From IMG/VR virus record IMGVR_UViG_2695420847_000002: 19,746 nt of DNA. The stretch is one strand, 5' to 3'. The position numbers and the translations under genes are program-made. Below, piece after piece: positions 1-19,646 of the stretch (within the stretch, counting starts at the first letter, position 1; each line of letters opens with the position of its first letter). Below the pieces are notes generated by a model. The model made no database searches. It saw only the letters and a list, made by a program, of their open reading frames with translations, and was not told where the DNA came from. This DNA comes from a virus. Its lineage: Duplodnaviria > Heunggongvirae > Uroviricota > Caudoviricetes.

Positions 1-3000
1 ATGCCGTCCTGTTCCTGAGACAATACGGCACGACCACTGGCGGGCTTGCCCTTAATCGTCCAGCCACGCATATCAGGGATCACGCCTGACGGATAAGCGG
101 CTGCAAGTTTCGGGTAAGCAGATTTGTCAAAAGTCTGCCCCTGCATCAGGGCATAACCAGACGGAACGGTATCTGATGGCCACGGGATTGGTGCGCCGAC
201 TGGGTAGCTTTCTGGTGGAAGATTTTTCGAGGTATAAACTTCTGCCCAGTCTTCCTCAAAACCATAACCGTCTCTTGAAGAACGGTAGAACAGACCACCA
301 TTTCTGTAATGCGCCTTCATCTGCAGGGTCCGGCAACTTCCGACTCCGGTATAGAAGTTAACCAGAATATAGCTGTCGCCAGAGCGGGTGACATTGTAAG
401 CGCCTGATTCGGCATTCCAGGGAACGCCACCATCCGCATCGGCATATGTATCCGTTGCCCTTCTGGCAAAAGCAGCCACATGCGCAGCGGTTAAAGTAAT
501 ATCTCTGGAACCATCAAACTCAACACCAGAAACCAGTCTTGGCGTTTGCAGCTTTGTTGCTGTTAATGCATTACCGTTCAGACTTGCGGACAGTTTGGTT
601 CCAATAATCAGTTCGCCGGTTGCGTTATCAATAGCAACCGGTCTTAATGTATTCCAGCCACCATAAACATCACCTTGATTGGTAAGCAGCAGGTAAGTTT
701 TAGCGCCATCATTACGCCATAATGCACCATACTCCCCACCTATCATTCGAATCTGATTACCACCACGCGCTACAATTTCGTCTGTGGCAAAAAGTTTTTT
801 GCACGACAAGTTATCGTTAACGATTAACGAATGAGACTCATAAAAACCACGCCCACTCTTAAAATCAAGGATAACGTCCGCCGCGATACATTCAGTCGCT
901 GGATTTGTTGCCCCAAACTTATAGGTCGTATCATTAACAACGAGATCAGCACCAGGTGCGGATATTGACAGGCCATCTTCGATAAACGCAAAAACAGGGA
1001 AAGCAGCGCCATCAACATAGAACACAGAGCGCAAATCATCGCCCTTATTACTCATCATTATTGAGTGGATGGCTCGTTCATTGTTTTGATATTGCCAGAA
1101 CATTCCATAAGCATAACGCCCCCTGTCAGTCCAGCCACCAGGCATAACAAATCCGTTAAACTCGCAGTTATTCATCGGATCGCCTGCGGTTCGCGTTGCC
1201 GTGGTGATAATGACCCTTGATGCCAGTTCGCTTACTGAGCCAGCAGAACGCATAACAACAACAGGGTAATATTTTCCAGATGTTGCACCTGCAGGAGCGT
1301 TAACCCGCACATAACGCATACCACGCTTATCAGCAAAGTCTGTTTTACTGACCGCGTTAATGTTGTTCAGGAAGCGTCCCTTATCGGGTATATCAGCGCC
1401 GTTCTGGTCTTTCTGCAGACGTTTCTCTGCATTGTCATAGGCTGATTTTACTGCCTTTGGCGTTGCCGCCAGCGTTTCAGACGTGCTGTTGGTCGCGCTG
1501 CTTAGCTGGATTATCCCTTTCTGTGCTGTCGTTGCATCCTGTGCGGTGTATTTCCCGTTAGCCAGGTCATACGCGGCCTTAACGGCTTTTGGCGTTGCCG
1601 CCAGTGACTCGGAAGTGCTGTTGGTCGCACTGCTGAGCTGTACTATCCCCTTTTTCGTCGTGCTCGCATCCTCAAGCGCCACGGCGGATGCAATATCCTC
1701 TGCCCGTTTTGCCGCTGTCTCAGCGCGCGTTGCCGCGGATTCCGCCGTACTTTTGCTCTGAGCTGCCGCCGTCGCACTGCCAGCTGCCTCTGTCGCCTTC
1801 GTGGATGCCGTCGTGGCGCTGCCTTTCGCTGCTGATGCCTGTCTGCTCGCCTCATCTTTTGAAGCAGACGCAGATGATGCCGATGACGCCGCCGAACTGG
1901 CGGACGATGCAGCAGCCGTTTTTGAGGATTCTGCACGGGTTTCCGACGCTTTCGCGTTCGTTTCGGATGTCTTCGCTGCGGAAGCTGACCTCGCTGCTGC
2001 GCTGGCCTGCTCAGTGGCTTCGCCAGCCTTCGTTGTGGCTGTTGAAGCGGATGATGCGGCGCTTTCTGCCGATTTTCCGGCGGCGGTGGCACTGGCTGAG
2101 GCCTGCCCGGCACTTGTTGACGCGGCGCTGGCAGACGACGCAGCCGCTGTTTTTGAGCCTGCCGCAGCTGAGGCACTCTGTCCCGCTGCCGTTTCAGAAG
2201 ACCTGGCGTTCGTCTCGGACGTTTTGGCCGCCTTCGCAGAATTTGCTGTCGCCGTTGCCGAGGAAGCTGCGCTACTGGCGCTCGAGGATGCGTTCGTTTC
2301 TGATGATTTTGCCGCCTCTTTTGAAGCCGCCGCATCCCGGGCTGAGGTGGCAGCTTCTGACGCTTTCGTGGTCGCGGTGGATGCAGAAGTGGCTGCTGAT
2401 TGTTGTGACGCTGCAGCATTCGTTTCTGACGTTTTCGCGGCACTGGCACTGGTAGCTGCCGCGCTTTTTGAGGACTCTGCAGCAGCAGCACTTTTCGATG
2501 CTTCAGTGGCCTTTGTTGATGCCGTTCCTGCGCTGGAAGATGCTGACTGAGCCGACGACGCGGCCTGTCCGGCTGACGTGCTGGCTGCGCGTGCTGAGCC
2601 TGCAGCATCAGTCGCACGGGTTGCCGCCTCACTGGCAGATGTGCTGGCATCACTGGCTGACTTCTTTGCGGCTGCCGTGTTCTGTGCCACCACGGACGCG
2701 TTACGCGCCACCTCTTCCACCATCAGCTCAAAACGGCGCAGTGCCTCCGGACGGGCATCATCCTCCGTCATGGCACCGAGAAAATCATTCAGCGTACCGG
2801 GTCGGGAATCTTCATACACTGTGATGGTCCCGGCATGTGACGGCGGGAATCCTTCCACCAACAGAATAACGCTGTACTGACCGTACTCAACGTCCATACT
2901 GTAACGCCCGGCTTCATCCGGATTTTCTGAGGCCAGCGTGTTCACCACCACCGTGGTACTGTTACGTTTTGCTTTCAGCTGGATTGTGCAGTTCTGTACC

Positions 3001-3047
3001 GGTTTTCCTGTGCCGTCTTTCAGTACACCTGAAATCTTTACTGCCAT
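1..3047 (-). CDS. stf: Side tail fibre protein Stf, N-terminal ~1015 codons; 3' end lies beyond window position 1
   Basis: Seen: continuous minus-strand frame from ATG at 3047..3045 ([36 protein letters not shown]...) to the window edge, where the same frame reads ...[15 protein letters not shown]...[23 protein letters not shown]. Spot-checked at 2680-2717 ([13 protein letters not shown]) and 1260-1319 ([20 protein letters not shown]). Absent from the ORF track because no stop codon falls inside the window. Established (recall): N-terminus and the [29 protein letters not shown] block closely resemble lambda Stf / E. coli StfR. Confidence 0.85.
1435..1690 (-). repeat. Tandem direct repeat, about 2 x 132 bp, inside stf; encodes two copies of a phage tail-fibre repeat motif
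   Basis: Seen: the core tttggcgttgccgccag recurs at about 1456 and 1588 with flanking similarity. Encoded peptides are [29 protein letters not shown]... and [29 protein letters not shown]... Established: this motif class is the Pfam 'phage tail fibre repeat'. Boundaries approximate. Confidence 0.6.
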
Positions 3048-3058
3048 ATTCACCCCAC

Positions 3059-3084
3059 AAAAAAGCCCGCCTGAACCGGCGGGC
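3059..3084 (-). terminator. Rho-independent terminator downstream of lom, immediately upstream of the stf start
   Basis: Seen: 7-bp GC stem gcccgcc / ggcgggc (3065-3071 / 3078-3084) with a 6-nt loop, followed on the minus strand by T6 (A-run 3059-3064 on plus). Minus-strand RNA: GCCCGCCGGUUCAGGCGGGCUUUUUU. Confidence 0.6.
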
Positions 3085-3111
3085 TGTCATAACACTGTGT
3101 TACCTGGCTAA

Positions 3112-3711
3112 TCAGAATTTATAACCGACACCCACGATGAACCCGTCAGTGCGCCAGTCACCACTGCCGGAGCCTTCATAAGCGACATCAACGGCCACGG
3201 ATTCGGTCGGGTTAAACTGCACGCCAGCTCCCCACGCCAGAGACGTGTTGCTGTGGCGACCGTCATCACTTCCGGTCAGCACATCGTGCGTTTTCCCCTT
3301 GTTGTCAGTTACGCGGATATAATCCCCGGAGAAAGTCGACACACGGCTGTAAGCCATACCCGCCATCGCATACGCGCTGAACCATTCATTCACGCGCACA
3401 GACGGCCCCGCCATCACGCTGAACCAGCGATTACGCACGGAATCCTCATGCCAGCGGGTATCGCTGTAATGCGTTTTTTGCTCATCTTCAGCGTTGGCAT
3501 AACTGAATGACGTAATCAGCCCCAGCGTGTCCGTAAACTCATAACGGTATTTCACGTTAATCCCGTTCAGATTATCGCTGCCGGGAGCGTTCGTACGGGC
3601 ATGAAGATACCCTGCGCTCAGTGTGGCCTGCTGCTCAGACGCCCATGCAGGCGCACCGGATACGGCCAGACAGATGGCTGCGGACAAAATGGCTGCACAA
3701 ACTTTACGCAT
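3112..3711 (-). CDS. lom: Lom outer-membrane beta-barrel protein (Ail/Lom/PagC family), prophage moron
   Basis: Seen: 199-aa ORF with a signal-peptide-like N-terminus (MRKVCAAILSAAICLAVSGAPAWA) and C-terminal ...GVGYKF; ATG at 3711..3709 preceded by GAGAGG. Established (recall): same position as lambda lom between J and stf. Flanked by terminators on both sides. Confidence 0.9.
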   Translation of the reverse strand: MRKVCAAILSAAICLAVSGAPAWASEQQATLSAGYLHARTNAPGSDNLNGINVKYRYEFTDTLGLITSFSYANAEDEQKTHYSDTRWHEDSVRNRWFSVMAGPSVRVNEWFSAYAMAGMAYSRVSTFSGDYIRVTDNKGKTHDVLTGSDDGRHSNTSLAWGAGVQFNPTESVAVDVAYEGSGSGDWRTDGFIVGVGYKF

Positions 3712-3735
3712 AATTACCTCTCGCTTTTCTGCAAT

Positions 3736-3760
3736 AAAAAAGGCGCCATTTCTGGCGCCC
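3736..3760 (-). terminator. Rho-independent terminator downstream of J (tJ-like), upstream of lom
   Basis: Seen: stem ggcgcca / tggcgcc (3742-3748 / 3753-3759), loop tttc, then T6 on the minus strand (A-run 3736-3741 on plus). Confidence 0.6.
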
Positions 3761-3778
3761 GTATATGGGTTATAAAAT

Positions 3779-6700
3779 TCAGCTGATACTGATGCCTGCG
3801 GTGGCTTTCTTCATCACCACAACCAGCAAATCGCTGATACTTGCTGTGGGATACCAGTCATTTACCAGCCATGCTGACACCGAAAACTCCAGCGTCATGT
3901 GGCCGTGACCAGCAGGCATATCAATAACACCACTGTAAATCAGCGTATTATCCAGCGCGGTACGGTTATAAATTTCAGCACCATTTTTCTTCACTATCAG
4001 GCGGCATGAGGAGTAAATATCAGTATGCTCTCTCTCATGTTTAGCACCGCTGAATGCCACCGCCGGAATAACAATCTGCCGGTCAAACGGCTGATCGTCA
4101 TAAATCCTGACGGTAATGGTCCCTGATGGCCACCGCTCCGGTGCCCGGGAGTCCCGCGGGAAAGCCTTACCCACTGTTTTGACAATATCGCCTTCAATCT
4201 GGTTGGCTGACAGTTTCCCTTTAATCTGACAGTTCTCATTTATCGTAACGTTGTTGAGCGTCCCGGAGTTCGCATTCACACTGCCACTGATATCTGCATT
4301 TTTAGCGGTCAGCTTTCCGTCCGGTGTCAGGGAAAATGCAGGAGGATTACCGCCGCTGGTAATGGTGGGAGCCGTCAGATATTTCAGGAACACTTCATTC
4401 ATGAATATCTGATCACCCTGACCAACAAACATCGGTTTTGTGTTGCCATTTGCAGGATTAATCATCGCAATCCTGTCTGCCGCCAGCAGCACCTGACTCT
4501 GCATGCCGTCGGGGGTGTTCTCAATACCGGCACCGATACCCGCGATATAAAGGCGTCCGTCCTGCATCTGCTGCAGCTTCACAGCCCACATGCTGTTCAG
4601 ATTATTATTTGTATCAACCTGAACCTTCTGTATCTGCTGGATCGCTGCACTCTGGTCTTCCAGTTTCTTATTGACGGTCTGTGTGATTTCATTGCTGACA
4701 TCCGTAATGGACGTCCTGATTTCAGCCAGGTCAGGCGCAAGCTGACCGTTATCAATCTGCGTCCACAGCTCCTGAGCCAGATGGGTTTTCCCTATCTCGC
4801 CTTTGAAAAAATCCAGATAGCCGGATGCGTCATCACTCGGCTGACCAACAGCCTCCACGAATGCCGATTTGCCAACGGTGTTCACACTGCGAACGTAAAA
4901 ATAATAATTATGGCCCGGCCTGATATTGATACTGGCGGCTATCCAGTACAGCGCCGTGCCAAGATAGCGTGCTGTGGTTTCAACCTGCCTGATATCCGCA
5001 ATCCGCTTTTCCGAGAACCAGAACTCAAACTGTACCGTCGGATCATAAACCGCAAGATGCGGCGTGGCGGTTATCTGAAAATAGCCCGGCGTCAGCTCAA
5101 TCCGCGACGGCGCTGCCGGTGCGGCAATCCGGAACGATACCGACGCCGGATCGCCCTGCTGCCCCCACGCATTTACTGCCCGGACTGTCAGCCTGTAGTT
5201 CCCCAGAGCCAGTTGTGTGAAGCGGTAAGTGGTTTCCGTCGTCCGGGCCGTGCTGACCAGCCGCTCACTGCCGTCATCCGCTGCCACGGTCAGGCGAAGC
5301 ATGAAACTCACGCCCTTCACCACCTTCGGCGTGTCCCAGCGGGCCAGTACCTGATACTCCCCGCTGTCTGCGGTGACTTCGGCAGTCAGGTGCTGCACTG
5401 CTGGCGGCGTGACACCATTCACCGTGCCGCTCTGGTCGCCGTCAAAGTGCGCCCCGTTATCCACGATGGCTTCTTTTTCCGGTACATGCTGCACGGCGGT
5501 GATGGCATACGTGCCGTCGTCGTTCTCACGGATACTCACGCAGCGGAACAGGCGCTGGCGCAGCGTCGGCAGCTTCAGCCCCCATACGCTGTATCCGGCA
5601 ACGCCGTCAGGAACACGGCTCACTTTTACCTTCACGCCGTCGGTGACGGACTGGACCTCCACGCTGACCGGATTGCCACTTCCGTCAACCAGGCTTATCA
5701 GCGTGGTACCGGAGGATGGCAGCGTGATTTCACGGTCGAGCGTCAGCGTCCGGGTCTGGCTGTTCACCGCCAGCACGCGCCCGCCGGTGCTGATCCCCGC
5801 ATAGTCATCATCGCAGATTTCAATGACATCGCCCGGCACATGGCGAAGCCCTTCCGCACCCACGCTGAAGTCCACGGTCTGCGTTTCCAGTAGTTCCGTT
5901 TTAATCAGCCACAGCCCGGCGCGGTGCGCCTGCCCCCGGCTGGTACAGCCAAAGGCATCCATCTTCGTGACGTTACGACCGTAACGGAGAATGGCCTGCG
6001 TATCTTCAACAAGCTCTGTCGCCGTCTCCCAGCCGTTATCCGGGTCAATCCAGTTCACCTCAACGGCATTATGACGGTCCTTCAGGGCACTGAAGCTGTA
6101 GCGGAACGGCGCGCCATCATCCGGCATCACCACATTACTGCGGTTATAGGTCCACACCTTATCCGACGGTCGGTCCTGCACGAACGTCAGCGTCTGCCCG
6201 TTCCATACCGGCATACAGCGCATCGCCGAGCAGAAATCACTGAGAACATCCCACGCCTTGCGCTGTGTGGTCAGGTAGGCATTACAGGTGATGCGCGGCT
6301 CCGTGCCACCAAAGCCATCCGGCACCGACTGGTCGCAATTCTGGCCGATGACATACAGCGCCCATTTGTCCACATCCGCCGCACCGAGACGCTTCCCCAT
6401 GCCGTAGCGCGGATGGGTCAGCATATCCCACAGACACCAGGCCATGTTGTTGCTGTATGCTGGCTTAAACGTTCCGTCCCAGATACCGCTGTATTGCCGC
6501 GTCTGCGGGTTATAGTTCGACGGCACCTGCAGAATGCGCCCGCGAAGATGATAATTACGGCTCACCTGCTGGCTGCCGAACTGTTCCGAGTCCACCTGCA
6601 CGCCGACCAGTGCCGTGTTCGGGTAGCACTGTTTCACATCGATGATTTCGGTGTATGACGACCAGAGCGTTTTGTTCTGCAGCTGGTCTGTGGTGCTGTC

Positions 6701-7258
6701 CGGCGTCATTCTGCGCATCCGGATATTAAACGGGCGCGGCGGCAGGTTATCCACCACCACCGAGGCCAGATACTGCGAGGTGGTTTTGCCCTTAATGGTG
6801 ATGTCTTTTTCCGTCACCCAGCCACCATTACGCTGTATCTGAACCAGCAGGCGAACTTCCGACGGATTCCGGTCCCCCTTTGAGGTGGTTTCCACCAGTG
6901 CCTGCACACCGAAGGTAAAGCGCAGTCGGTCGATGTTTGCCGACGTGATGGCGCGGGTGATCGGCGTGTCGTATTTCACTTCCGTACCCAACACCGTCTC
7001 GGAGCCGGAGGATTCAAATCCCTCCGGCGGAGTCTGCTCCTGCTCACCAGCCCGGAACACCACCGTGACACCGGCGATGTTGGTATTCCCATCACTGTCC
7101 AGCACCGGCGTACTGTTCAGCAGCACGCTTTTTAATCCATCCATCGGACCTTCAATCGGCCCTTCACTGATGGCATCAATCACACTCAGCAACTGCGTGG
7201 ACTTCAGGTTGTCCTTCGCTTCGCGCGGGGTATGCCCCTTACTGCTTCCTTTACCCAT
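3779..7258 (-). CDS. J: Tail tip central fibre / host specificity protein J
   Basis: Seen: 1159-aa ORF, ATG at 7258..7256. Established (recall): N-terminal ~780 aa are near-identical to lambda gpJ ([38 protein letters not shown]...); the C-terminal part is homologous but diverged. Confidence 0.95.
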
Positions 7259-7280
7259 TCCTCACGCTCCATAAACGACA

Positions 7281-7300
7281 AAACCGCCCGCAGGCGGTTT
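7281..7300 (-). terminator. Stem-loop in the I-J intergenic gap (terminator-like, weak U-tract)
   Basis: Seen: 8-bp stem aaaccgcc / ggcggttt with 4-nt loop; on the minus strand followed by UUUUGUCGUUU, then the J ribosome-binding site GGAG. Function inferred only. Confidence 0.3.
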
Positions 7301-7318
7301 CACATAAAACATTTTGCA

Positions 7319-7960
7319 TCAGCGACCAATCACCACAACCTGACCACCATCCCCTTCGTCTGCCGTGCTGATCTCCTGAGAAACCACGCGTGACCCCACG
7401 CGCATTTCACCGTACAGAACAGGCAGAACATTGCCCTGGGCAACCATGTTATCCAGTGAAGAAAAATAGGTGTTCTGTTTGCCGTTATCCGTTGTCTGTG
7501 TGCGGGGGGTTTTGGGTTTAGGGGCCAGCATCTGTGCAACACCGCCAAGCGTCATACTGGCACCGAGAGAAAACAGCAGATTACTCGCCATAATTCCTAC
7601 CCCCGGCATCCATATAGCAACCGCCATAACAGCCGCCCCCAGCACAGCCTGAAACACACCGCCACTTTTGGCTCCCGCCAGACGCGGCACGATATGGATC
7701 ACAGCACCATTTGCCAGCGGTTCATTAAGACGGGCTGATAATTCCGTTTCACCTGTATCACGCCCGGCAATGCGTACCTGATACCAGCCGTCGCTCAGCT
7801 TCTGACGAAACGCCGGGATCTGCATGGCCAGCGCCCGGATGGCTTCGGCCCCCGTTTTCACACGCAGATCGATGCGGCGGCCAAATCGTTGTAAATCCCC
7901 GTAAAGGCAGATGCGCGCCATGCCCGGTGACGCCAGAGGGAGTGTGTGCGTCGCTGCCAT
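7319..7960 (-). CDS. I: Tail tip assembly protein I
   Basis: Seen: 213-aa ORF, ATG at 7960..7958, overlapping the 3' end of K by ~100 nt. Established (recall): the same K/I overlap exists in lambda; N-terminus MAATHTLPLASPGMARICLYGDLQRFGRRIDLRVKTGAEAIRALA matches lambda gpI. Confidence 0.9.
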   Translation of the reverse strand: MAATHTLPLASPGMARICLYGDLQRFGRRIDLRVKTGAEAIRALAMQIPAFRQKLSDGWYQVRIAGRDTGETELSARLNEPLANGAVIHIVPRLAGAKSGGVFQAVLGAAVMAVAIWMPGVGIMASNLLFSLGASMTLGGVAQMLAPKPKTPRTQTTDNGKQNTYFSSLDNMVAQGNVLPVLYGEMRVGSRVVSQEISTADEGDGGQVVVIGR

Positions 7961-8601
7961 TTGTCGGTATACCTCTCTCGTTTGCTCAGTTGTTCAGGAA
8001 TATGGTGCAGCAGCTCGCCGTCACCACAGTAAATGGCGGCATGATTCGGCACCGATGAACCAAAGCAGCACAGCAGCACATCGCCCGGTTGTGCTGATGA
8101 CAACGGCACCTGATACAGCCCTGTGGCCTCCAGATTATCCAGATAGAGATTCTGACCGTGACGCCACCAGTCATCCCCGCGATGAAAATCCGGCATCTCA
8201 ATTCCCGCCAGATGGTAAGCGTCCCGGAACAGCGTGTAACAGTCCGTCACCCCGTGCTCAAAGCGCCGCCCGGTGAGATGCGGCACACAGCGGAATTTAT
8301 GAATCGCCCCCCGGCAGACCAGCCACCACGGCAAATCACTCTGCACCTGCAGCCGCCGGTCGGCCTCACTCAGCCAGGGCAGACCACCGGGGTGGCTGTG
8401 GACCAGCGCCACAATCTCTCCCTGCATTTCTGCACTCAGCCAGTCCTCCGGCGACATCCGGAAATACTCCTCCGGCTCACCGGATATATTCACGCAGGGA
8501 AAATATCTTTCCCCCTCCGGTGTTCTCACCACGAAGCCGCACGACTCCGCTGGCGCACATCGCCGGGCGTGCGCCAGAATCGCTGATTCTGTCTCTGTCA
8601 T
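7858..8601 (-). CDS. K: Tail tip assembly protein K (MPN/JAMM-like plus NlpC/P60-like domains)
   Basis: Seen: the ORF is open from 8610 (GTG) with the first ATG at 8601..8599, 6 nt after the L stop. It contains HSHPGGLPWLSEAD (HxHx7SxxD) and a downstream Cys/His NlpC/P60-like segment (VTDCYTLF...NHAAIY). Start codon uncertain (8610 GTG, 8601 ATG, or an internal Met). Confidence 0.85.
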   Translation of the reverse strand: MTETESAILAHARRCAPAESCGFVVRTPEGERYFPCVNISGEPEEYFRMSPEDWLSAEMQGEIVALVHSHPGGLPWLSEADRRLQVQSDLPWWLVCRGAIHKFRCVPHLTGRRFEHGVTDCYTLFRDAYHLAGIEMPDFHRGDDWWRHGQNLYLDNLEATGLYQVPLSSAQPGDVLLCCFGSSVPNHAAIYCGDGELLHHIPEQLSKRERYTDKWQRRTHSLWRHRAWRASAFTGIYNDLAAASICV

Positions 8602-8606
8602 GGGAT

Positions 8607-9305
8607 TCACTGCGAAAGTTTGTTAATGGAAAGGAAGCCGCCAAAGTTGCCGACGTTATTGCGAAACTTACAGCCGCTCAGGCATTTGCTGCATTTATCC
8701 TTCGTGATATCGGACGTCGGCTGATCATATTCATCCGCGACCGCCGGACCGTGATAACCGCACTCATCACCGCGATAGGTCCAGGTGCAGGTGTTGGCCA
8801 GCATGATACGTCCCGGAAAAACGGCACCGTCCGTTTCCGTCGGCGTGGACAGTACAAAAGAGGCACTCACCGCGCTCAGTTCACTGCACTGCTCGATGCG
8901 CCAGCGGCTGATCACCTCCTGCTCCGGATCGGCGTCACTGTTTCCGTTGACGAAGTTCACCGCATCCAGAAAACGGGCGTAAACCTTACGCCTGACCACC
9001 GTTCCGCCGACCAGACTCTGCAGGTCTTCCGCCATCCCGGTGACCATGCCGTGCAGGTTAGAGACCGTCAGTGTCGGACGGGCAGCACTGCCCTTACCGT
9101 TCAGTTCAAATCCCGTCCCCTGAATGGGGTATGCCTGATACTGCCGCCCCTGCCAGGTGACCGGCTCACCTTTTTCGTTCTGCTCATTACAGAAAAAATA
9201 ACGTTCACCACCGACCTCTGTCAGATCGATTTCCCAGAGCACCACCTGGGCTGACTGAGTAAGGCGTGTCGTCTCATGATGTGTTTCCTGTGGAATATCC
9301 TGCAT
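8607..9305 (-). CDS. L: Tail tip protein L (C-terminal Cys cluster)
   Basis: Seen: 232-aa ORF, ATG at 9305..9303, ends ...KCSKCLSGCKFRNNVGNFGGFLSINKLSQ. Established (recall): near-identical to lambda gpL, same length. Confidence 0.95.
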   Translation of the reverse strand: MQDIPQETHHETTRLTQSAQVVLWEIDLTEVGGERYFFCNEQNEKGEPVTWQGRQYQAYPIQGTGFELNGKGSAARPTLTVSNLHGMVTGMAEDLQSLVGGTVVRRKVYARFLDAVNFVNGNSDADPEQEVISRWRIEQCSELSAVSASFVLSTPTETDGAVFPGRIMLANTCTWTYRGDECGYHGPAVADEYDQPTSDITKDKCSKCLSGCKFRNNVGNFGGFLSINKLSQ

Positions 9306-9314
9306 CAGGGCCTC

Positions 9315-9644
9315 CTATGCCACGACCTGTTCAAAATCTGCCGTTATGGTTACCCACAGCGCCCCCACGCTTGCCGACCATTTACGACAAACCACCCTGA
9401 TCGGCTTCCAGTCATAAGGTGGCGTCCACTGAAATGCGCGGACGCCACCGTGCCGTTCCAGAAAGGCTTTCAAAGATGGGTGTTCACATTTACGAACACG
9501 TATCGTCACGCTGTAAGTCGACAACTGGTTATTCAGTCCCGCCGCACGACGCTGTTCATAACCATCGCCCAGCTTCACTGTCACCACTTTCGGCTCTGAT
9601 ACCACATTCATATCCGGGCGCACTTTCCAGTGAAACGTCTCCAT
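9315..9644 (-). CDS. M: Tail tip protein M
   Basis: Seen: 109-aa ORF (METFHWKVRPDMNVVSEPK...); its ATG overlaps the H stop as TAATG. Established (recall): same length and sequence as lambda gpM. Confidence 0.95.
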   Translation of the reverse strand: METFHWKVRPDMNVVSEPKVVTVKLGDGYEQRRAAGLNNQLSTYSVTIRVRKCEHPSLKAFLERHGGVRAFQWTPPYDWKPIRVVCRKWSASVGALWVTITADFEQVVA

Positions 9645-12600
9645 TACCGATATGCTCCACTTAACCGACCACCATCACGGGCCTGCTGTTGCATAAAGTC
9701 CGCTGCCGCTTTTTTCCCAAGGTCATAAACCACCTTCAGGGCAGCCGGACCTATCTGCCCGTTCGTGCCATCGTTATTGATCTCGATGTTGTACTGCGGG
9801 GCAAACATCGCCATACCTGAACCACCAATATCCGCCACAACCCCCAGCTTACCATCAGCACCACGACGCAGTGGCAGAATGGCTTCAGGTCCAGCTTCCC
9901 CCATCACACCCGCGCCTTTTGCAAAAGCAAAAAACGTCGGACGGTTAACCACCGTGCCACTGTAGCGACTCAAATCAGCCGACTGATAAACACCGCCATC
10001 AGCATTGGCTACAAAATCAAAAGGCAGCGCGGAAGCAATACCTTTTACCGCTTTCATTAAAGCTATCTGAGCCATGATTCTGGACATATCTGACAGCACA
10101 GAAGAGGTGAAGGATTTGAAATTGAGTTTGCCTGTAGTACAGAATGTCGCCAGCCAGTCACTCATGCTACTGAACGCAGACGTGAACAACTGTTCCACTG
10201 TCCCGGCTGTGTTATCCGCTTTCTCAGTGACATTCTGGAGTGCACGCAGGACTCCGTTTTTCCAGTCACCCTGAGCAATTTCAAGCTGTTGCCAATAACG
10301 GCGATTCTCATTCAGTTGTCGGTTCAGGCTCTCCGTCAGCGCCTGCTCGGCCTTTCTGTAGTCATCCGTGTTATATGTTCCTTTCTGCTCACTATCCCGC
10401 CTCAACTGCTCCAGCTGTTGCTGGTATTTCTGGCGAAGACTCAGTTGTACCTGATATCGCTGCCGCTGCTGATCACCCATACCCACCGTGGCGATATCCA
10501 GGTCATGTTGCTGGCGCTGAGCGCGCTCTTCTTCAGCCAGTTGACTGGTCAGCTGAATTGTTTTTTTCTTCAGATCGTTGAGTGCCGTCTGTTTCTGAAG
10601 CTCCTGCTGTTTTACATCCAGCAGCGTCAGTGCCTGAATCAGTTCATCTTTACGGGCCAGCACACTCTTTTCATCTGCCGTCAGTTTTTTCCCGTCCAGA
10701 TCGCTGATGCGCTGCTGCAGAGCCAGAAGCTGTTTATGCGCTTCTGTCATCCTGTCAGTGGCAATGCCTGCTGACTGTCTTGCAGCAGCAATCTGTCCTT
10801 CCACCTGTGCCTGTTGCTGACTGTACTGCAGCAATAACCGGGTGGCCTCATCATTACGGGTTTCGCGTGTTTTTTTCTTACCGGATGCCAGGACTTTCTC
10901 GTAACGTTCATTTTCACGTTGTATCGCCGCATCCCTGACAGCCTGATCGGCGTACTGCATGGCATTAATACGCGCAATTTCACGCTGATGTCGTGCTGCT
11001 TCCGTTTCATTCATCCGGTTCAGTGCAGCATTTTCAGCATTACGGCGTTTCTGTTGCTCCTGATAATTCCGCTCTGCCTGCTCTTTTGCATCCTGCAAAT
11101 CCTTCTGGCGTTTTTTCTCCTGAAGCTCGTTAAGACGCTGCTGATCGTACTCAACCTGAGAAGATGATGCCGTCCAAGGGAGTCTTTTCGCCCGCGACAC
11201 TTTCTCCTGTAAAGCGGAAATCTGTTCATCCAGCGAGTCTTCACGACCAATATTCATGGCCGCATCCCAGAAACGACTCCATAAATCAGACAGATACTTC
11301 AGCGTACTGCCCAGCGCATTGAGGTTATTATCAATATCCGCAGTACGCCGACCGGTTTCCTCTGCCAGTGCAGACATGGCTATCCGTGCCGCATCACTGG
11401 ACCGCCCCTGTTCCCCAAGGACGCGTATCTGCTCAAGCTGAGTGGCAGTAAGAAAATGCAGCTCATTGTCCAGAGCCTTCGCGGCATTTACAGGATCATC
11501 CTTCAGCCGCTTAAACTGATTTATGGTATCGCTGACCGACTGGCCAACCGATCGCTCCATCTGTGCGGCAGCTCTCGCCACCATACCGATATCGTTTCCA
11601 CGAAATGCACCACTCCCCACCACCTGAGCCAGCGCACCGGCTGCAGCATGTTGCGTGATACCATTCCCGGAAATAGCACGACTGAGCGTCCACAGCTGCC
11701 CGGCAGTGACTCCGGCATAATGCCCCGTCAGCGACAGCTGGCGGTTAAATTCTTCCCCCTCCTTCTGACCGTCATACCAGGCTTTACCCAGACCATAGAC
11801 AGCCGCGGCAATACCGCCAATAACCCCGCCAAGCATCATGCCTTTCGGTGACATCAATGTGTCTATCCATCCGGCACGGTTAGCCAGCGTTATTCCGGAT
11901 CCCCTCAGCGCACCTAAATTGCCGCGGGCCAGTTCACCTATCAGAACGCCTATCTCCTGACGGGCCGCTGCACTTTTCAGACCCAGCGAATGCGTTGCTT
12001 TTCCTGCCTGCTCCATTTTGCGGATATACACTTCTGCAGCACTGCTTACCCCCAGCTGGGCAGCCTTAGCACGAAGCAACTCAGAAGAAGAAAGATTCTG
12101 GCGGGTTGCCTGCTCTTTAAGCTGACGGATAAACGCCACTTTCTGTCGGGTAGCCTCTTCCTCAGCCTGTGTAAGAACACGGGTTTTCGCCGTAACCTCA
12201 GAAATCAGCGCCAGATAATCCTGCTGACCAATCCCGCCACTGTTTCTGGCCTGTCGGATCTGCTGCTGAATACGCTGTAATTCCTGCAGCCCCGCACTGG
12301 CCTGTTTCACACTGTCAATCTGACGATAAAACGCGGCAGCCGCTTTATCCTGAGCCTCCGCCAGAGCCATGGCCTGCGCCTGTTCCTCGCGCATTTTCTG
12401 GCTCAGTGCCTCCATACGCTGGCGGGTTTGCTCCACCTCGCGGGCCATGCGTTCATGAGCCTGTGCGCTCTTCTCCACCGTCTGCGCATGGACGGATGCG
12501 GCTGTTGCAGCCGAAGAAGCCGCCTGCATTGTCTGCCGGGCGGCCTGAGTCTGACGCTCCATAAAACGCTGCATACGGGCAGAAGACCGTTCTGCATCGC

Positions 12601-12700
12601 TGGCTGCACCATTCAGAAGGTTTTTGATACGGGGAATTTCATTTTTAAACTCTGCCGCATCAATCCCCAAATCAATGACCAGGTTGGCTATCTGGTCCAT
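9644..12700 (-). CDS. H: Tail tape measure protein H
   Basis: Seen: ORF is open to a TTG at 12730, but the ATG at 12700..12698 is preceded by GGAGGTG at good spacing, giving 1018 aa. Long central coiled-coil (Gln/Ala/Arg/Glu-rich). C-terminus NNDGTNGQIGPAALKVVYDLGKK...DGGRLSGAYR matches the lambda gpH C-terminus from recall. Position between T and M. Confidence 0.9.
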   Translation of the reverse strand: MDQIANLVIDLGIDAAEFKNEIPRIKNLLNGAASDAERSSARMQRFMERQTQAARQTMQAASSAATAASVHAQTVEKSAQAHERMAREVEQTRQRMEALSQKMREEQAQAMALAEAQDKAAAAFYRQIDSVKQASAGLQELQRIQQQIRQARNSGGIGQQDYLALISEVTAKTRVLTQAEEEATRQKVAFIRQLKEQATRQNLSSSELLRAKAAQLGVSSAAEVYIRKMEQAGKATHSLGLKSAAARQEIGVLIGELARGNLGALRGSGITLANRAGWIDTLMSPKGMMLGGVIGGIAAAVYGLGKAWYDGQKEGEEFNRQLSLTGHYAGVTAGQLWTLSRAISGNGITQHAAAGALAQVVGSGAFRGNDIGMVARAAAQMERSVGQSVSDTINQFKRLKDDPVNAAKALDNELHFLTATQLEQIRVLGEQGRSSDAARIAMSALAEETGRRTADIDNNLNALGSTLKYLSDLWSRFWDAAMNIGREDSLDEQISALQEKVSRAKRLPWTASSSQVEYDQQRLNELQEKKRQKDLQDAKEQAERNYQEQQKRRNAENAALNRMNETEAARHQREIARINAMQYADQAVRDAAIQRENERYEKVLASGKKKTRETRNDEATRLLLQYSQQQAQVEGQIAAARQSAGIATDRMTEAHKQLLALQQRISDLDGKKLTADEKSVLARKDELIQALTLLDVKQQELQKQTALNDLKKKTIQLTSQLAEEERAQRQQHDLDIATVGMGDQQRQRYQVQLSLRQKYQQQLEQLRRDSEQKGTYNTDDYRKAEQALTESLNRQLNENRRYWQQLEIAQGDWKNGVLRALQNVTEKADNTAGTVEQLFTSAFSSMSDWLATFCTTGKLNFKSFTSSVLSDMSRIMAQIALMKAVKGIASALPFDFVANADGGVYQSADLSRYSGTVVNRPTFFAFAKGAGVMGEAGPEAILPLRRGADGKLGVVADIGGSGMAMFAPQYNIEINNDGTNGQIGPAALKVVYDLGKKAAADFMQQQARDGGRLSGAYR

Positions 12701-13022
12701 AACGCACACCTCCGGAAATACCTTCCCCAAGATGCATCAGTTCTTCGTCCGTTCGCTCCGGTATCCCGTTCTCTTCCGGTAAAAGGCTGAAATCAGCCAC
12801 CGCAGCATCACTGCTACCGGACACCATTCTCACGATCAATGCCTTCAGCGAGGCAAACTGCGCATCCATCCACACATCACTGAAGCTCTGCATCCGGAAA
12901 TAATCGCCCCATTCACCAAGCTCAGTGGCCGACATTTCCGACAGCATCCGCCGCCAGTCTGCCCGCCGGAACTCCCGGGCAAGCCGCATGACAAACTGCA
13001 TTTCCCGCGTCAGGACTTTTCC
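12672..13022 (-). CDS. T: gpT segment of the G-T tail assembly chaperone, read in the -1 frame relative to G (programmed frameshift)
   Basis: Seen: the -1 frame is open from a stop at 13037..13035 through to 12672 and overlaps the last codons of G. It has no plausible independent ribosome-binding site. Established: the G/G-T arrangement is conserved upstream of tape measure genes in long-tailed phages. The frameshift is inferred, not demonstrated. Confidence 0.7.
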   Translation of the reverse strand, partial: GKVLTREMQFVMRLAREFRRADWRRMLSEMSATELGEWGDYFRMQSFSDVWMDAQFASLKALIVRMVSGSSDAAVADFSLLPEENGIPERTDEELMHLGEGISGGVRYGPDSQPGH

Positions 13023-13399
13023 GGCGTCAGCACCTCATGCTCCAAATCCCCGGCATTCTCAATGGCTCCCATACCGCTCAGCGACAGAACCATCTCCGCC
13101 CCCGCTCCCAGGGCATCATACGACCATGTTGTAATAACGGATGCGCAAAGCGTCTCAACATCCTGAGACTGTTCCGCATTCCACAGTGAGCGGGAAACCA
13201 GCCAGGCATTGATATCCATCCCCATCCGCAGAAAAGCAATCTGTCGTTCAGCCTCCGGCAGTTCTCCCTCCCCGGCATCAAACTTTGCCGTTCGCTGCTG
13301 AACAAACGCCAGATATTCAATTCTCTGCAGCCCGGACAGCTCACTGAGCACCACGGACTGCTTTTCATAATTAAACGTGCCCTGTTTCAGAAACATCAT
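13010..13399 (-). CDS. G: Tail assembly chaperone G
   Basis: Seen: ATG ATG at 13399..13394 preceded by AGGTGGAG; the longer ORF in the track (13438) would start inside the upstream terminator hairpin. The motif ...VVLSELSGLQRIEYLAFV... resembles lambda gpG (recall). Stop TGA at 13012..13010. Confidence 0.85.
   Translation of the reverse strand: MMFLKQGTFNYEKQSVVLSELSGLQRIEYLAFVQQRTAKFDAGEGELPEAERQIAFLRMGMDINAWLVSRSLWNAEQSQDVETLCASVITTWSYDALGAGAEMVLSLSGMGAIENAGDLEHEVLTPEKS
13016..13022 (-). other. Candidate -1 frameshift slip site GGAAAAG at the end of G
   Basis: Seen: minus-strand ...CCG GAA AAG TCC TGA in the G frame; the heptamer G GAA AAG lies inside the 22-nt window where both G and T frames are open. 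Established (recall): the lambda site is G GGA AAG. Assignment by inference only. Confidence 0.35.
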
Positions 13400-13412
13400 G
13401 TTCTCCACCTGC

Positions 13413-13436
13413 AAAAAAGCCCCGGATAACCGGGGC
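13413..13436 (-). terminator. Rho-independent terminator between V and G
   Basis: Seen: stem gccccgg / ccggggc (13419-13425 / 13430-13436), loop ataa, followed on the minus strand by T6 (A-run 13413-13418 on plus), then the G ribosome-binding site. Confidence 0.55.
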
Positions 13437-13456
13437 AAATGATGAGTATCGTCCTG

Positions 13457-14200
13457 TTAACCTGCGGCGCTGACAGCCACCGCAGCCACTGCCACAAAAT
13501 CGCCGTCAGAAGTCATGCCCACAATGCTGACACTGCCCTGCTTCACGCCTTTCACCGTGGCCACAAGCCCGTTCAGGGTCACCGTGGCAGTCTGTGGATC
13601 TGTCGAATGCACACTGATCGCTTTGTCACTGGCTCCGTCAGGTTTTACTGTAAAGGTCAGCGTGGTGGTTGCTCCCACTTTTACACTGGCAGATGCCGGT
13701 GCCACCGTCAGCCCGGTAACGCTCACTGTTTCAGTGCCTTCCTCTGCCAGATACGGACGCCCCACACCGCTGATTTTCACTGTGCGGGTCATCACGTCTT
13801 TTGAGGCAATGGTTTTACCCAGTGAGCTCAGCCAGCCACGGAAAACATCAACAGTGCCGTTGGGATATTTGATACGAAACGCGCAGACTTCACCGGAGTC
13901 GAACAACTGAACCAGTTTTTTCTGCCCGCTGTCACCCGGACGCCAGGCCAGCGTCGCCGAAGTATCACCGACGGATTTCTGCCCCTGGGTTGTCGTTTTC
14001 CAGTCTGCATCTTCATCATCGAGATAAGTGTCATCTTCTGCATCAGCGGTCATTTCGCCAGGTTGCAGATCCTTCACCATCGCAAGACGCAGCCAGTCAG
14101 TGTCCGATAAAGGGTTCGCAAACGCATCGCCCTTGCCGGTGTACATCCAGAACGTCGTTCCCGCACCTTTCGTTTTTGCCAGTGGATTTGGTGTGGTCAT
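13457..14200 (-). CDS. V: Major tail protein V with a C-terminal Ig-like domain
   Basis: Seen: ATG at 14200..14198 preceded by AAGGAGGTG (the track ORF starts at an upstream GTG, 14206). ...KTKGAGTTFWMYTGKGDAFANPLSDTDW...YLDDEDADW...YPNGTVDVFRGW... closely resembles lambda gpV (recall). Confidence 0.95.
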   Translation of the reverse strand: MTTPNPLAKTKGAGTTFWMYTGKGDAFANPLSDTDWLRLAMVKDLQPGEMTADAEDDTYLDDEDADWKTTTQGQKSVGDTSATLAWRPGDSGQKKLVQLFDSGEVCAFRIKYPNGTVDVFRGWLSSLGKTIASKDVMTRTVKISGVGRPYLAEEGTETVSVTGLTVAPASASVKVGATTTLTFTVKPDGASDKAISVHSTDPQTATVTLNGLVATVKGVKQGSVSIVGMTSDGDFVAVAAVAVSAAG

Positions 14201-14211
14201 TGCCACCTCCT

Positions 14212-14613
14212 TTAATTCGTGTACGTGATCTGGTACGTGATTTCCGCCATCGCCCAGGTGGCCATCTCATTATCACGTTGATAGTTAAAACCGAGAGGGA
14301 TCAGGGTGTCGATGAGTCCGGAAAGTGCCGGTATATCATTCAGAGCCGGGAAAATGGTGCTCTCCATCCACATATCCAGCTCTGAATCCGGTGCCTGTGC
14401 CCGGATGAAGACAGCAATATGCAGAACAGCCTGCCAGTCATCTTCATCCGTCATTTTTCCGGTGTACTGAGCATCACTCAGCCACACCGCCACGGCATGC
14501 AGTTCCTGCGCATCAATAAATGCCGGAAGCCCGTCAAAAAACGTGGCGCTGTCTCCACACTGTTCCCGAAGGCGTGCCAGTACGGCCTGGCGGATTTGTG
14601 TATGTCGGTTCAT
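14212..14613 (-). CDS. U: Tail terminator protein U
   Basis: Seen: ATG at 14613..14611 overlaps the Z stop as ATGA; an alternative upstream ATG is at 14625. ...ATFFDGLPAFIDAQELHAVAVWL...WMESTIFPALNDIPALSGLI...ITYQITYTN resembles lambda gpU (recall). Confidence 0.85.
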   Translation of the reverse strand: MNRHTQIRQAVLARLREQCGDSATFFDGLPAFIDAQELHAVAVWLSDAQYTGKMTDEDDWQAVLHIAVFIRAQAPDSELDMWMESTIFPALNDIPALSGLIDTLIPLGFNYQRDNEMATWAMAEITYQITYTN

Positions 14614-15188
14614 CGGGTCAGCCATAACCTCAGTTGTTGTTTCAGTGCATACCCCAGCTGTTTCGGCATTTCCGCAGCAATAATGCGGTCGCGGGCATCT
14701 TCAAATGCCTGTGTCAGCGGTCCGGACAGCGGGACTTTCACCACATCAATGGGGTAACGATTTTTGCCATCAATACGCCGCATCACATGCCAGCGACCAT
14801 TCGCCAGTTGCTGAATAAACGCATCCCGGAAAAGATATTTACCCACCTTCAGCACACTGCCACGGTACTGCAGTTTTCCACCACGCCGGGCCAGTCTGAC
14901 CCGGGCTGTCCCCAGCTTAATAGCGGGCAGATTGCCCCGGTTAACGCGGATCCTGGCCGTCATTTTTCCTGACGGACTGGCTTTAAACACCCGGACACGC
15001 TGACGTACCAGTTTCAGGGGGATCCCTCTCACCTGGTTATCTCCCGCAACGGTATTCCCGGCAACCTGCCGGGTGGCGACCGAGACCGCTTTCTGTGCCA
15101 CACGATTTATCGCCCATGCGCTGGCCTGTGGCACCATACGGGTATCAAGGCTGTTCAGATTACGGATGGCATTCTCAAGCCCCTTCAT
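14610..15188 (-). CDS. Z: Tail completion protein Z
   Basis: Seen: 192-aa ORF, ATG at 15188..15186 preceded by AGAGGTG. Assigned by synteny (between FII-like and U) and by length equal to lambda gpZ (recall). Confidence 0.8.
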   Translation of the reverse strand: MKGLENAIRNLNSLDTRMVPQASAWAINRVAQKAVSVATRQVAGNTVAGDNQVRGIPLKLVRQRVRVFKASPSGKMTARIRVNRGNLPAIKLGTARVRLARRGGKLQYRGSVLKVGKYLFRDAFIQQLANGRWHVMRRIDGKNRYPIDVVKVPLSGPLTQAFEDARDRIIAAEMPKQLGYALKQQLRLWLTR

Positions 15189-15199
15189 CCCACACCTCT

Positions 15200-15475
15200 T
15201 TACTCAATAAAGATCATTGGCTTACCGTTAAAACGTTCATGCCGTGTGACCGTCCATTGTTGTCCGTCATAAACAACGCGATCCCCGCGCCGTGGGCGGT
15301 ATCCCGAAGAAAACACCACCAGAGAGACCGCAGGTCCGGACAGAGCATTCAGCTCTGCCAGTGTTTCTCCCGGGATCACAGTCATATCGGCATCATTAAT
15401 CGAGGCTGTCTTTCCCATCTTTCTGACCGTGATCGCATCCATACGCGCTGCCAGCCTGGAAAAGGGATCAGACAT
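15200..15475 (-). CDS. Head-tail connector protein at the lambda FII position (FII-like)
   Basis: Seen: 91-aa ORF; its ATG at 15475..15473 overlaps the stop of the upstream gene by 8 nt (ATGTCTGA), so it is probably translationally coupled. Assigned mainly by synteny; sequence similarity to lambda FII not verified. Confidence 0.6.
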   Translation of the reverse strand: MSDPFSRLAARMDAITVRKMGKTASINDADMTVIPGETLAELNALSGPAVSLVVFSSGYRPRRGDRVVYDGQQWTVTRHERFNGKPMIFIE

Positions 15476-15791
15476 TGAGTTTTACCGGCACTTCTTCTGC
15501 ACTGGTTCCGGCATCTGCCCAGACAACCCCGACCAGCGGATCAGAGCCGCTGTTAGTCAGCTGAACTTTTCCGGACTTCAGATAAACCTTCTTACCCGTT
15601 TTCATATCATCCGTTTTCAGCTTAGGCAGCATAAACACACCTTCGGTCATGCCGTCGCCTGTTTCACCCTGTGGAATATCGGTCAGCGCCACCGCAAAAA
15701 TATTACCCACCTGCACCAGATCTCCGCTGCTGATGGCTGCACTGGCAACAATCGCCACCGTTTTTCCTTCTTCTACAAAATTCTTTGCCAT
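15468..15791 (-). CDS. Small DUF2190-like protein of unknown function at the position of lambda FI (possible capsid accessory/decoration protein)
   Basis: Seen: ATG at 15791..15789 preceded by CGGAGA; the track ORF starts at an upstream TTG (15836) inside the terminator. MAKNFVEEGKTVAIVASAAISSGDLVQVGNIFAVALTDIPQGETGDGMTEGVFMLPKLK... fits my recollection of the DUF2190 family found next to HK97-type capsid genes. Not verified by search. Confidence 0.5.
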   Translation of the reverse strand: MAKNFVEEGKTVAIVASAAISSGDLVQVGNIFAVALTDIPQGETGDGMTEGVFMLPKLKTDDMKTGKKVYLKSGKVQLTNSGSDPLVGVVWADAGTSAEEVPVKLNV

Positions 15792-15834
15792 AACTGTCTC
15801 CGCACAGCCCCGTTCAGGGGCTGATTTCAGGTAC

Positions 15835-15853
15835 AAAAAAAGCCCTTACGGGC
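15835..15853 (-). terminator. Weak rho-independent terminator just downstream of the capsid gene
   Basis: Seen: 4-bp GC stem gccc / gggc (loop ttac) followed on the minus strand by T7 (A-run 15835-15841 on plus). A second 6-bp hairpin (agcccc / ggggct, 15806-15822) lies between it and the next ribosome-binding site. Short stem, so low confidence. Confidence 0.4.
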
Positions 15854-15877
15854 CATCAGAGTTGTTGTCTGCGACGT

Positions 15878-17836: not shown

Positions 17837-17849
17837 CCTGAACCAGGAA

Positions 17850-19358
17850 TTATTCTTCGGACTGGTCGTCGGTGTGCTGCGGCTCCTGTCGTTTCGTTGC
17901 GGCACTGCTGCCTCCTTTATCACTGGCCGGATCGGTATCAAATACCAGATCCAGCTTGCGGTTTTCATCAATTTCGGCCTTGCGCCGACGTTTGACATCA
18001 TCCGGATTACGACCACCTGCACGTACCCAGTCTGATTCTGTCGCTGCTCCACCACGAATCTGAATTTTCCAGGCCTCAGCCTCCTTAACAGGGTCAATCC
18101 ACGGCATCACCGGTCCGGAGTACACCGCGGTATACAGTGAAGAACGGTCAAGATCGCGGGGTAGCCTGATAACACTGGATGCCACAGCCTGTTTCAGCCA
18201 GGCACGATACATCGGGCGGGTGACAGCACCAATAAACCAGTCCTGCAGGATCAGGTAGCCATCAGTGGATTCAACCAGCTCCTGACGCTGGGCGCTGTAA
18301 GTGCCGTTATAGTTGCGCGCTGTACTGGAAAAACTCAGACGACTGCCCGCCGCCACGGCACGCAACTGACCATTACGAAAAGTTTCAAGGTTAGGATTGG
18401 GGCGATCCGACTTCACCATTCCGATTTCTTCGCCGGGTTTCAGATCGTCGTAAATAATGCCTGGCTGAATGGTAAGCTCGCGTTCCTTATCCTTGCTGCC
18501 ATTACCATCCGGTTCATAGCTCTGCCCGTCGCCTTTGCGGATGTACATCCCCAGAGCAGCGGCGATCCTTGCTGCAGTCAGCTCATAATCTTCATAATCT
18601 TTCAGGGCACTGAGGCGGATCAGCACACCGGACAACAAAGACGTCCCGCGCATCTGGTGCAGACGGCGAACAAATTTAAGATGCAGCATTCGCTCTGCAT
18701 CCACTTCTTTGGTTTCCATCTGCCGTCCGGATACGGGACGGCTTTTATACACCAGATATTTTTCGGGACGCCCCCAGTCATCAACAAACACGCCCTGATT
18801 CAGCCTGTTGCTCTCATCACTGGTCATGGGAATAAAGTCTGGCTCGAGCGCCTCCAGCCAGAAATGAACACCGGCAGAAGGCGTCAGGCTGTTTATGCGC
18901 CCGGAAACCATCTGGGCAAACACCTCACCATCGCGCAGCCAGGTACGCAGCATCAGACGTTCCAGCATCGGACGGGTAAACTGCCCGGTGACTTCCGGGC
19001 TGACAGACCATTCACTCCATCGGGTGCGAATCTCCGCTGCCAGATCACGGGCAATGGCCCCATTGCGTAATACCGGATGTGGCTCGACAATAATCCCGTT
19101 TTTCCCCACCACCCGTTCTTCCAGCTTGTCAAATACACCAATAACCAGATCGTGGTTGTTATCAAGGTAACGGGCCTGCTCACGTAACGACACGGCCCCG
19201 TACTGGCTTAGCTGGTCGGCAGTTCGGTTCTCCCGTCGGGCTTTGTGTGTCCGCGTCGTTTTTACGGCTTCATAAGCCTGGATCACCGCACGGGAACGCA
19301 GCCTTGCCGCTTTCCATCCAGGTGAAAAAACGCCAATCACATCATCAAGAATTGCCAT
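17850..19358 (-). CDS. B: Portal protein, lambda gpB family
   Basis: Seen: ATG at 19358..19356 preceded by GAGG and overlapping the W stop as ATGA; the track extension to GTG 19430 is rejected. C-terminus ...RKLDLVFDTDPASDKG...EPQHTDDQSEE resembles the lambda gpB C-terminus (recall). Confidence 0.9.
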   Translation of the reverse strand: MAILDDVIGVFSPGWKAARLRSRAVIQAYEAVKTTRTHKARRENRTADQLSQYGAVSLREQARYLDNNHDLVIGVFDKLEERVVGKNGIIVEPHPVLRNGAIARDLAAEIRTRWSEWSVSPEVTGQFTRPMLERLMLRTWLRDGEVFAQMVSGRINSLTPSAGVHFWLEALEPDFIPMTSDESNRLNQGVFVDDWGRPEKYLVYKSRPVSGRQMETKEVDAERMLHLKFVRRLHQMRGTSLLSGVLIRLSALKDYEDYELTAARIAAALGMYIRKGDGQSYEPDGNGSKDKERELTIQPGIIYDDLKPGEEIGMVKSDRPNPNLETFRNGQLRAVAAGSRLSFSSTARNYNGTYSAQRQELVESTDGYLILQDWFIGAVTRPMYRAWLKQAVASSVIRLPRDLDRSSLYTAVYSGPVMPWIDPVKEAEAWKIQIRGGAATESDWVRAGGRNPDDVKRRRKAEIDENRKLDLVFDTDPASDKGGSSAATKRQEPQHTDDQSEE

Positions 19359-19570: not shown

Positions 19571-19610
19571 AACCATCCTCCGGAAGTCAGCCAGGGGTTA
19601 ACATCGTCAG

Positions 19611-19646
19611 TTACTGTTTTCTTCCGTTTTTGTTTTTTAACAGTAA
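19611..19646. repeat. 8-bp perfect inverted repeat TTACTGTT / AACAGTAA separated by a 20-nt T-rich spacer, upstream of W
   Basis: Seen directly in sequence at 19611-19618 and 19639-19646. Function unknown (RNA hairpin or protein-binding site). Confidence 0.3.

Follow-up and report, generated by a model that had tools for sequence, protein, structure and literature searches.

A mosaic lambdoid tail fibre protein J with a receptor-binding domain of the gpJ-1A2 class

We found that the J protein encoded by a 19,746-nt stretch of Caudoviricetes DNA (IMG/VR record IMGVR_UViG_2695420847_000002; this whole stretch is called the window here) is a mosaic, in which a lambda-like trunk is followed by exchanged modules and ends in a receptor-binding domain (RBD) of the class that includes gpJ-1A2, VT1-Sakai and PhiR55_1. 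Because this RBD is homologous to that of the experimentally characterised 1A2, the most likely receptor of the window J would be OmpC, not LamB. We regard a modular J assembled by recombination and carrying an OmpC-type RBD as the probable explanation overall.

J, the central tail fibre or tip attachment protein, is encoded at 3779..7258 on the minus strand by an intact 3480-nt ORF of 1159 codons without a frameshift, and its protein sequence is identical to RefSeq WP_048943199.1 (E. coli CFSAN061769). Six Pfam domains were found in the order known from lambda (FNIII-A_GpJ, Phage-tail_3, Ig_J, Ig_J_second, Phage_Tail_Tip and Ig_GpJ_C), all of them above the gathering cut-off with E values from 1e-31 to 1e-42. 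The last of these, Ig_GpJ_C, marks the RBD at aa 1029-1159 (E = 5.7e-37) and was matched along its entire profile. The gene lies in a siphovirus tail module with the order M-L-K-I-J-lom-stf: upstream are the tape measure gene, M, L, K and I, and downstream are lom and then the side tail fibre gene, so that I-J-lom-stf are arranged as in lambda. The lom product (3112..3711, minus strand) is an Ail/Lom outer-membrane beta-barrel of 199 aa (Pfam Ail_Lom, E = 3e-126). The stf gene (1..3047, minus strand) is a second host-range determinant adjoining J; it is truncated by the left end of the window, which retains its N-terminal 1015 codons with Pfam matches to phage_tail_N, Phage_fiber_2, Gp34_trimer and Collar. 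In a genome copy about 99% identical to the window, the annotation gives stf as a tail fibre of 1176 aa, with tfaQ after it. A terminator-like hairpin was found directly downstream of J (3741..3760, minus strand), at a position where terminators are annotated in phages 434 and 21. A second terminator-like hairpin lies downstream of lom.

For comparison with lambda we used gpJ of NC_001416 (1132 aa), and the names of the J domains (alpha-helical shaft (AHS), beta-prism fibre and so on) follow the cryo-EM work on the lambda tail (PMC11101478). The two proteins could be aligned collinearly from end to end, with 83% identity over 1159 columns, and LamB-binding lambda gpJ (PDB 8IYK, 8XCJ, 8XCK) shares both the architecture and the gene order of the window J. 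The lambda-like trunk (aa 1-815; 4814..7258, minus strand), which contains the hub domains and two FNIII/Ig domains, is 96.8% identical to lambda J in protein and 92-98% in nucleotide sequence. An earlier note on this DNA had described the first ~780 residues as near-identical to lambda gpJ, and identity over aa 1-780 is indeed 97.3% (759/780). The same note had the protein diverge from there onward, within 3779-4900 (J aa 787-1159 plus the stop codon). The divergence is real, but its break lies at aa 816, where the motif quoted in that note (DFFKGEIGK) exactly begins, and it is not continuous, as a near-identical island is enclosed between two modules that have been exchanged independently.

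The first of these, variable module 1 (aa 816-935; 4454..4813, minus strand), comprises the AHS together with the upper end of the beta-prism fibre and is only 35.8% identical to lambda at the protein level. It represents a 'long' allele with 28 residues more than lambda (836-856 and 860-866) and shares 96-99% nucleotide identity with phage 21, PhiR55_1 and WGPS6. The conserved island (aa 936-1005; 4244..4453, minus strand) corresponds to the lower central straight fibre and returns to 90% protein identity with lambda; aa 961-1000 are 100% identical, and aa 971-1000 are 96-98% lambda-like at the nucleotide level. It is common to all lambdoid J classes examined and is the likely landing pad for recombination between shaft and RBD modules. 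At the junction of fibre and RBD, nucleotide and protein alignments revealed a short neck patch of the A8/phi330 type (aa ~996-1025; 4184..4273, minus strand), with nucleotide identities of 93-98% to phi330, 76-78% to PhiR55_1 and 56-69% to lambda. Here the window has S993, QIK1011-1013 and I1025, where other J proteins of the 1A2 class have N, RVL and L. The protein ends in the Ig-like RBD (aa 1026-1159; 3782..4183, minus strand).

In the final 1.1 kb of J, sliding windows at the nucleotide level revealed four or more exchanges. Nucleotides 1-2400 of the gene are lambda-like (92-98%). The long shaft (~2400-2910) follows, with identities of 96-99% to its counterparts in phage 21, PhiR55_1 and WGPS6 and of 27-63% to that in lambda. 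The sequence is again 96-98% lambda-like at ~2911-3000, then of the A8 type (93-98% to phi330) at ~2986-3075, and finally, at ~3076-3480, 89-100% identical to PhiR55_1 and VT1-Sakai but about 50% to lambda. Comparison of protein lengths with a matrix of RBD identities showed that shaft length varies independently of RBD type among phages: one RBD occurs with a long shaft in phage 21 and with a short one in 4A7, another with a short shaft in phage 434 and with a long one in WGPS6. We also modelled parts of J with single-sequence AlphaFold2. The model of aa 801-960 (pLDDT 56.8, low confidence overall) was used solely for the helical prediction of aa 840-899; it contained helices at aa 811-836 and 840-899, with pLDDT 72-91 over 841-890, and thus predicts, at low confidence, that the extra shaft residues are helical. 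A crude heptad count on the shaft was uninformative. The RBD model (aa 1000-1159; mean pLDDT 41.5) was too poor for a fold search, and the sequence matches (Pfam Ig_GpJ_C; PDB 9wca and 8xcj) are much stronger evidence than this model.

We then compared the RBD (aa 1029-1159) with those of other lambdoid J proteins. It was 99.2% identical to PhiR55_1, 96.2% to VT1-Sakai and 95.4% to 1A2, but only ~60% to phage 21 and 4A7, ~57% to A8 and phi330, 41.2% to lambda and 38% to 434, mEp460 and WGPS6. The known receptors are OmpC for 1A2, A8, phi330 and 434, and LamB for phage 21 and lambda. We found no published receptor for PhiR55_1, the sole paper naming this phage (PMC13190303) testing ManYZ dependence. 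The four hypervariable loops, whose indel hotspots have been mapped to lambda positions 1012, 1048-1049, 1077-1078 and 1107 (PMC6646904), aligned with zero gaps to 1A2, VT1-Sakai and PhiR55_1 and with gaps to every other class. With identities above 90% to all three, the window RBD is by sequence a member of the 1A2/VT1-Sakai/PhiR55_1 class. It is not of the lambda LamB-binding type (lambda gpJ ~990-1132, loops L1-L4), as all four receptor loops have been replaced, nor of the 434/mEp460/WGPS6 type. It also lies outside the A8/phi330 class in its core, from which it is set apart by an indel of 6-7 residues in loop 2 and by dissimilar loops 1, 3 and 4; only the neck matches (aa 984-1028 are identical to those of the A8 chimera and phi330). 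The best solved-structure match of the C-terminal 373 aa was PDB 9wca ('A8 gpJ 713', E = 2.7e-138), ahead of lambda gpJ. Over the last 150 aa, which the earlier note had called only loosely similar to lambda, identity was 43.3%, far from the near-identity that would have spoken against its reading; among the J proteins compared, 1A2 has the closest C-terminal domain with a known receptor.

The 1A2 sequence deserves comment. Its DNA was taken from the supplement of PMC11338833, a machine-read PDF with indel errors, and reading frames were found by tblastn with the window protein and then stitched. The resulting RBD is 99.2% identical to that of VT1-Sakai, with one position uncertain owing to the machine-reading errors. 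The lambda-to-insert junction is at approximately ...NADISG|N..., so that only the last ~168 aa of 1A2 are foreign; over this stretch the window J is ~94% identical to the insert.

For this class, evidence on the receptor comes from the 1A2 chimera. Brödel and colleagues (2024, Nature, PMC11338833) fused gpJ C-termini of natural E. coli phages to lambda gpJ and thereby switched it from LamB to OmpC, yielding A8 and 1A2. Particles with 1A2 delivered DNA into delta-lamB delta-ompC cells only when OmpC was supplied (PMC11338833; bioRxiv 10.1101/2025.02.28.640725). They were active with the OmpC allele of EDL933 and inactive with that of MG1655, and on a panel of 23 OmpC alleles their delivery at the top MOI was 76% or higher for 20, with failure on G1 (MG1655), G2 and G40 (PMC11338833). 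For EDL933 OmpC we relied on the text of that paper, its Extended Data Fig. 8a sheet and the Extended Data Fig. 1 data for allele G17; the source sheet of Extended Data Fig. 2c was set aside because its values for 1A2 and A8 are those of panel b. A8 and the Stx2a phage phi330, whose RBDs are 98.5% identical, are both OmpC-dependent and accept the K-12 allele as well, which 1A2 does not. Their common use of OmpC provides a cross-check for inferring a receptor from RBD identity. The A8 gpJ fragment of 9wca has also been solved in complex with the OmpC trimer (PDB 9wcb). Phage 434 is an OmpC user too (PMC11101478); its J has the same architecture but an RBD of a distinct class, indicating that OmpC use arose in, or spread over, very different RBD classes. 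A receptor-prediction preprint of 2026 is concerned with GpJ of Drexlerviridae and expressly leaves out the lambda C-terminal domain.

By analogy with gpJ-1A2, the window J would probably recognise the majority of the OmpC variants that occur naturally in E. coli, that of O157/EDL933 among them, but probably not the K-12 variant. The J proteins of related phages match it in part. gpJ-1A2 and VT1-Sakai (AP000400, an O157:H7 prophage) have the same RBD class, loop lengths and C-terminal beta-strands as the window, but differ in the neck, as aa 993-1025 of the window are of the A8/phi330 type; moreover, 1A2 has the short shaft of lambda, and the VT1-Sakai J is interrupted by a mutation while the window J is intact. 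PhiR55_1 (PV340571), a temperate, ECOR-derived phage propagated on E. coli C, forms plaques and has a J of 1159 aa with 25/1159 differences. The PhiR55_1 RBD differs from that of the window at K1090R only, and the two J proteins have D1134 and the long shaft in common, but the PhiR55_1 neck has N993, RVL1011-1013 and L1025. Phage 21 J (1160 aa) carries the window's long shaft allele on a different RBD.

Between the window and 1A2, the RBD changes are I1052V, R1076K, K1090R, D1134N and S1157T, with F1069L possibly a reading error (five to six in total); the five certain ones are conservative or isosteric (I/V, R/K, K/R, D/N, S/T). R1076 is found at the loop aligned with the lambda 1048-1049 indel hotspot. 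D1134 (codon 3857..3859, minus strand) aligns with lambda D1107. This lambda residue lies within one of the four indel hotspots by which natural J lineages are defined, is critical for host range and, together with 1012, was indispensable for the laboratory switch to OmpF (PMC6646904). Within the class the site is variable, with D in the window and PhiR55_1, N in 1A2, VT1-Sakai and O157 prophages, and G in 2G7b and PhiR47_1. We consider this D/N/G variation a caveat on the allele range rather than a class-defining feature. Phage 21 provides a precedent: it natively uses LamB, its RBD is 80% identical to that of OmpC-using A8, and a single mutation in J enables it to use OmpC (PMC11336670), so a very small number of residues can decide which receptor a member of this family uses. 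Together with the 1134 site, this precedent means that 95-96% identity makes OmpC the best call but not a certainty, and that the range may differ from that of 1A2. There is a small chance that the A8/phi330-type neck and D1134, set on a 1A2-type RBD, give the window J a porin range unlike that of the 1A2 chimera, for example acceptance of K-12-type OmpC or dual use of OmpC with LamB or OmpF.

The earlier note had suggested either a receptor other than that of lambda or a different LamB variant, and homology to OmpC-using gpJ-1A2 supports that hedged proposal, with the sequence comparison favouring its first branch. Continued use of LamB, or of an allele of it other than that of K-12, appears quite unlikely for this RBD. 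Phage 21, with an RBD ~60% identical to that of the window, does use LamB and stands one mutation away from OmpC, and the window keeps the Asp of lambda D1107 where 1A2 has Asn; however, the window RBD shares only 41% with that of lambda and 95-96% with an RBD that is active in delta-lamB cells and requires OmpC, and all differences from the latter are conservative or isosteric. We think it very unlikely that another trimeric porin or outer-membrane protein (e.g. OmpF or PhoE) is used, or a dual set such as OmpC and OmpF. The RBD class has no characterised member with a receptor other than OmpC, and 1A2 delivery fell to background without it in a strain for which an ompF deletion is not mentioned (PMC11338833), even though lambda and phage 21 J gain OmpF or OmpC use by a few substitutions in the same loops and the critical 1107-equivalent site varies between D, N and G.

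J might also be a relic in a defective prophage, without a current adsorption function, in which case its sequence would record past exchange and not present selection. Near-identical copies are found at the ydfJ/tfaQ (Qin) locus, where K-12 has a cryptic prophage; the homologous J of VT1-Sakai is split by a mutation, and regulatory or replication genes are absent from the window. On the other hand, the window J is an unbroken ORF, the head and tail genes from the tail fibre through the portal are intact in a 99.1%-identical genome copy, with the terminase genes just outside the window, segments resembling the window (at least 80% of its 19.7 kb) occur in 1721 genomes, and a phage with a 97.8% identical J (PhiR55_1) forms plaques. 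We therefore judge a relic unlikely.

In the explanation we favour, J forms, as a trimer, the central tail fibre of a lambdoid prophage, and recombination has put it together from exchangeable modules: a hub and FNIII trunk of the lambda type, a long alpha-helical shaft, a conserved beta-prism stretch, an A8/phi330-type neck and a 1A2-class RBD. For its triggering we infer a sequence of events from lambda, for which loop insertion, base spreading, shaft flip, FNIII release and tip opening are established (PMC11101478). The four hypervariable bottom loops of each of the three RBDs would enter the extracellular mouth of the trimeric porin. Binding would then spread the bases of the RBDs and twist the beta-prism fibre, after which the helical shaft would flip and partly refold; finally, the FNIII arms would be released, the tail tip would open and the DNA would be ejected.

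Finally, we determined how common this tail tip is. Of 5426 complete E. coli genomes, 3394 contained the nucleotide sequence of the window RBD (the median carrier had two copies), while 98, many of them laboratory DE3 lysogens, contained the RBD of lambda itself. The best complete-genome match of the whole window was 99.1% identical, and those copies lie beside ydfJ/tfaQ. These counts reverse the implied view of this J as an unusual departure from lambda: it is the window allele that is common in E. coli and the lambda allele that is rare.

Concentration of natural variation in a C-terminal 'specificity region' was reported for 1207 J homologs in 2018 (PMC6646904). The divergence of the window J was thus a correct reading of a well-known pattern, in an allele class that has already been functionally characterised and used in engineering, and it leaves current understanding unchanged. 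What the analysis offers is a prediction from sequence, namely OmpC, of the receptor used by a tail-tip allele carried by ~60% of complete E. coli genomes, among whose prophages the textbook LamB-binding tip of lambda is a rare type. The module boundaries (the island at aa 936-1005, the neck patch and the RBD) are natural junctions that have already been exploited for gpJ tip swaps. Should the porin range of the window J prove to differ from that of 1A2, the D/N/G variation at 1134 would be a natural host-range switch in the commonest class of E. coli prophage tail tips.

The head module (window 15878-19430, minus strand) was found to be of a non-lambda type. A 739-aa ORF within it encodes a major capsid protein fused to a ClpP-like prohead protease, and this ORF is adjoined by a lambda-family portal gene. 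In this prophage a tail tip of lambda type is therefore paired with a head-assembly cassette of another kind.

The tape measure ORF (9644-12730, minus strand) encodes 1028 aa, whereas the annotation of the matching genome gives 1021 aa; it is longer than lambda gpH (853 aa). Injection by PhiR55_1, a plaque-forming temperate phage whose J is near-identical to the one in the window, has been reported to be ManYZ-independent (PMC13190303).

The top complete-genome matches (99.1%; e.g. NZ_CP042969.1) covered window positions 1-19643 only, so that the last ~100 nt (19644-19746) are divergent. In these genomes the prophage adjoins ydfJ and tfaQ, which is the Qin prophage locus. No exact match to the window was found among complete E. 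coli genomes of the collection.

In the Stx1 prophage VT1-Sakai (AP000400.1, 508-3980) the annotation divides J into two ORFs, described as 'truncated by a mutation'. Though split, J carries a receptor-binding domain essentially identical to that of 1A2, a functional OmpC-using lambda gpJ chimera. In the source data for Extended Data Fig. 2 of PMC11338833 (supplementary file 10), the values for 1A2 and a second such chimera, A8, in panel C (OmpC-EDL933) equal those in panel B (OmpC-MG1655). The duplicated panel C numbers conflict with the text of that paper and with its other source sheets, and the duplication is probably a copying error that arose in the source file itself or in the stored version of its text.

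Terminator-like hairpins were detected on both sides of lom, at 3064-3085 and, on the J side, at 3741-3760 (both minus strand). This arrangement is consistent with lom, which lies between J and the side tail fibre gene stf, being a moron that is terminated independently, and it agrees with the annotation of phages 434 and 21.

The N-terminal 1015 codons of stf occupy 1-3047 (minus strand), with the gene extending past the window end, and encode phage_tail_N, Phage_fiber_2 repeat, Gp34_trimer and Collar domains. Within stf, ~1500-2900 is GC-rich and strongly AT-skewed, and because of this several frames of either strand contain long, spuriously open ORFs. The gene is a second determinant of host range, and may be as important for adsorption as J.
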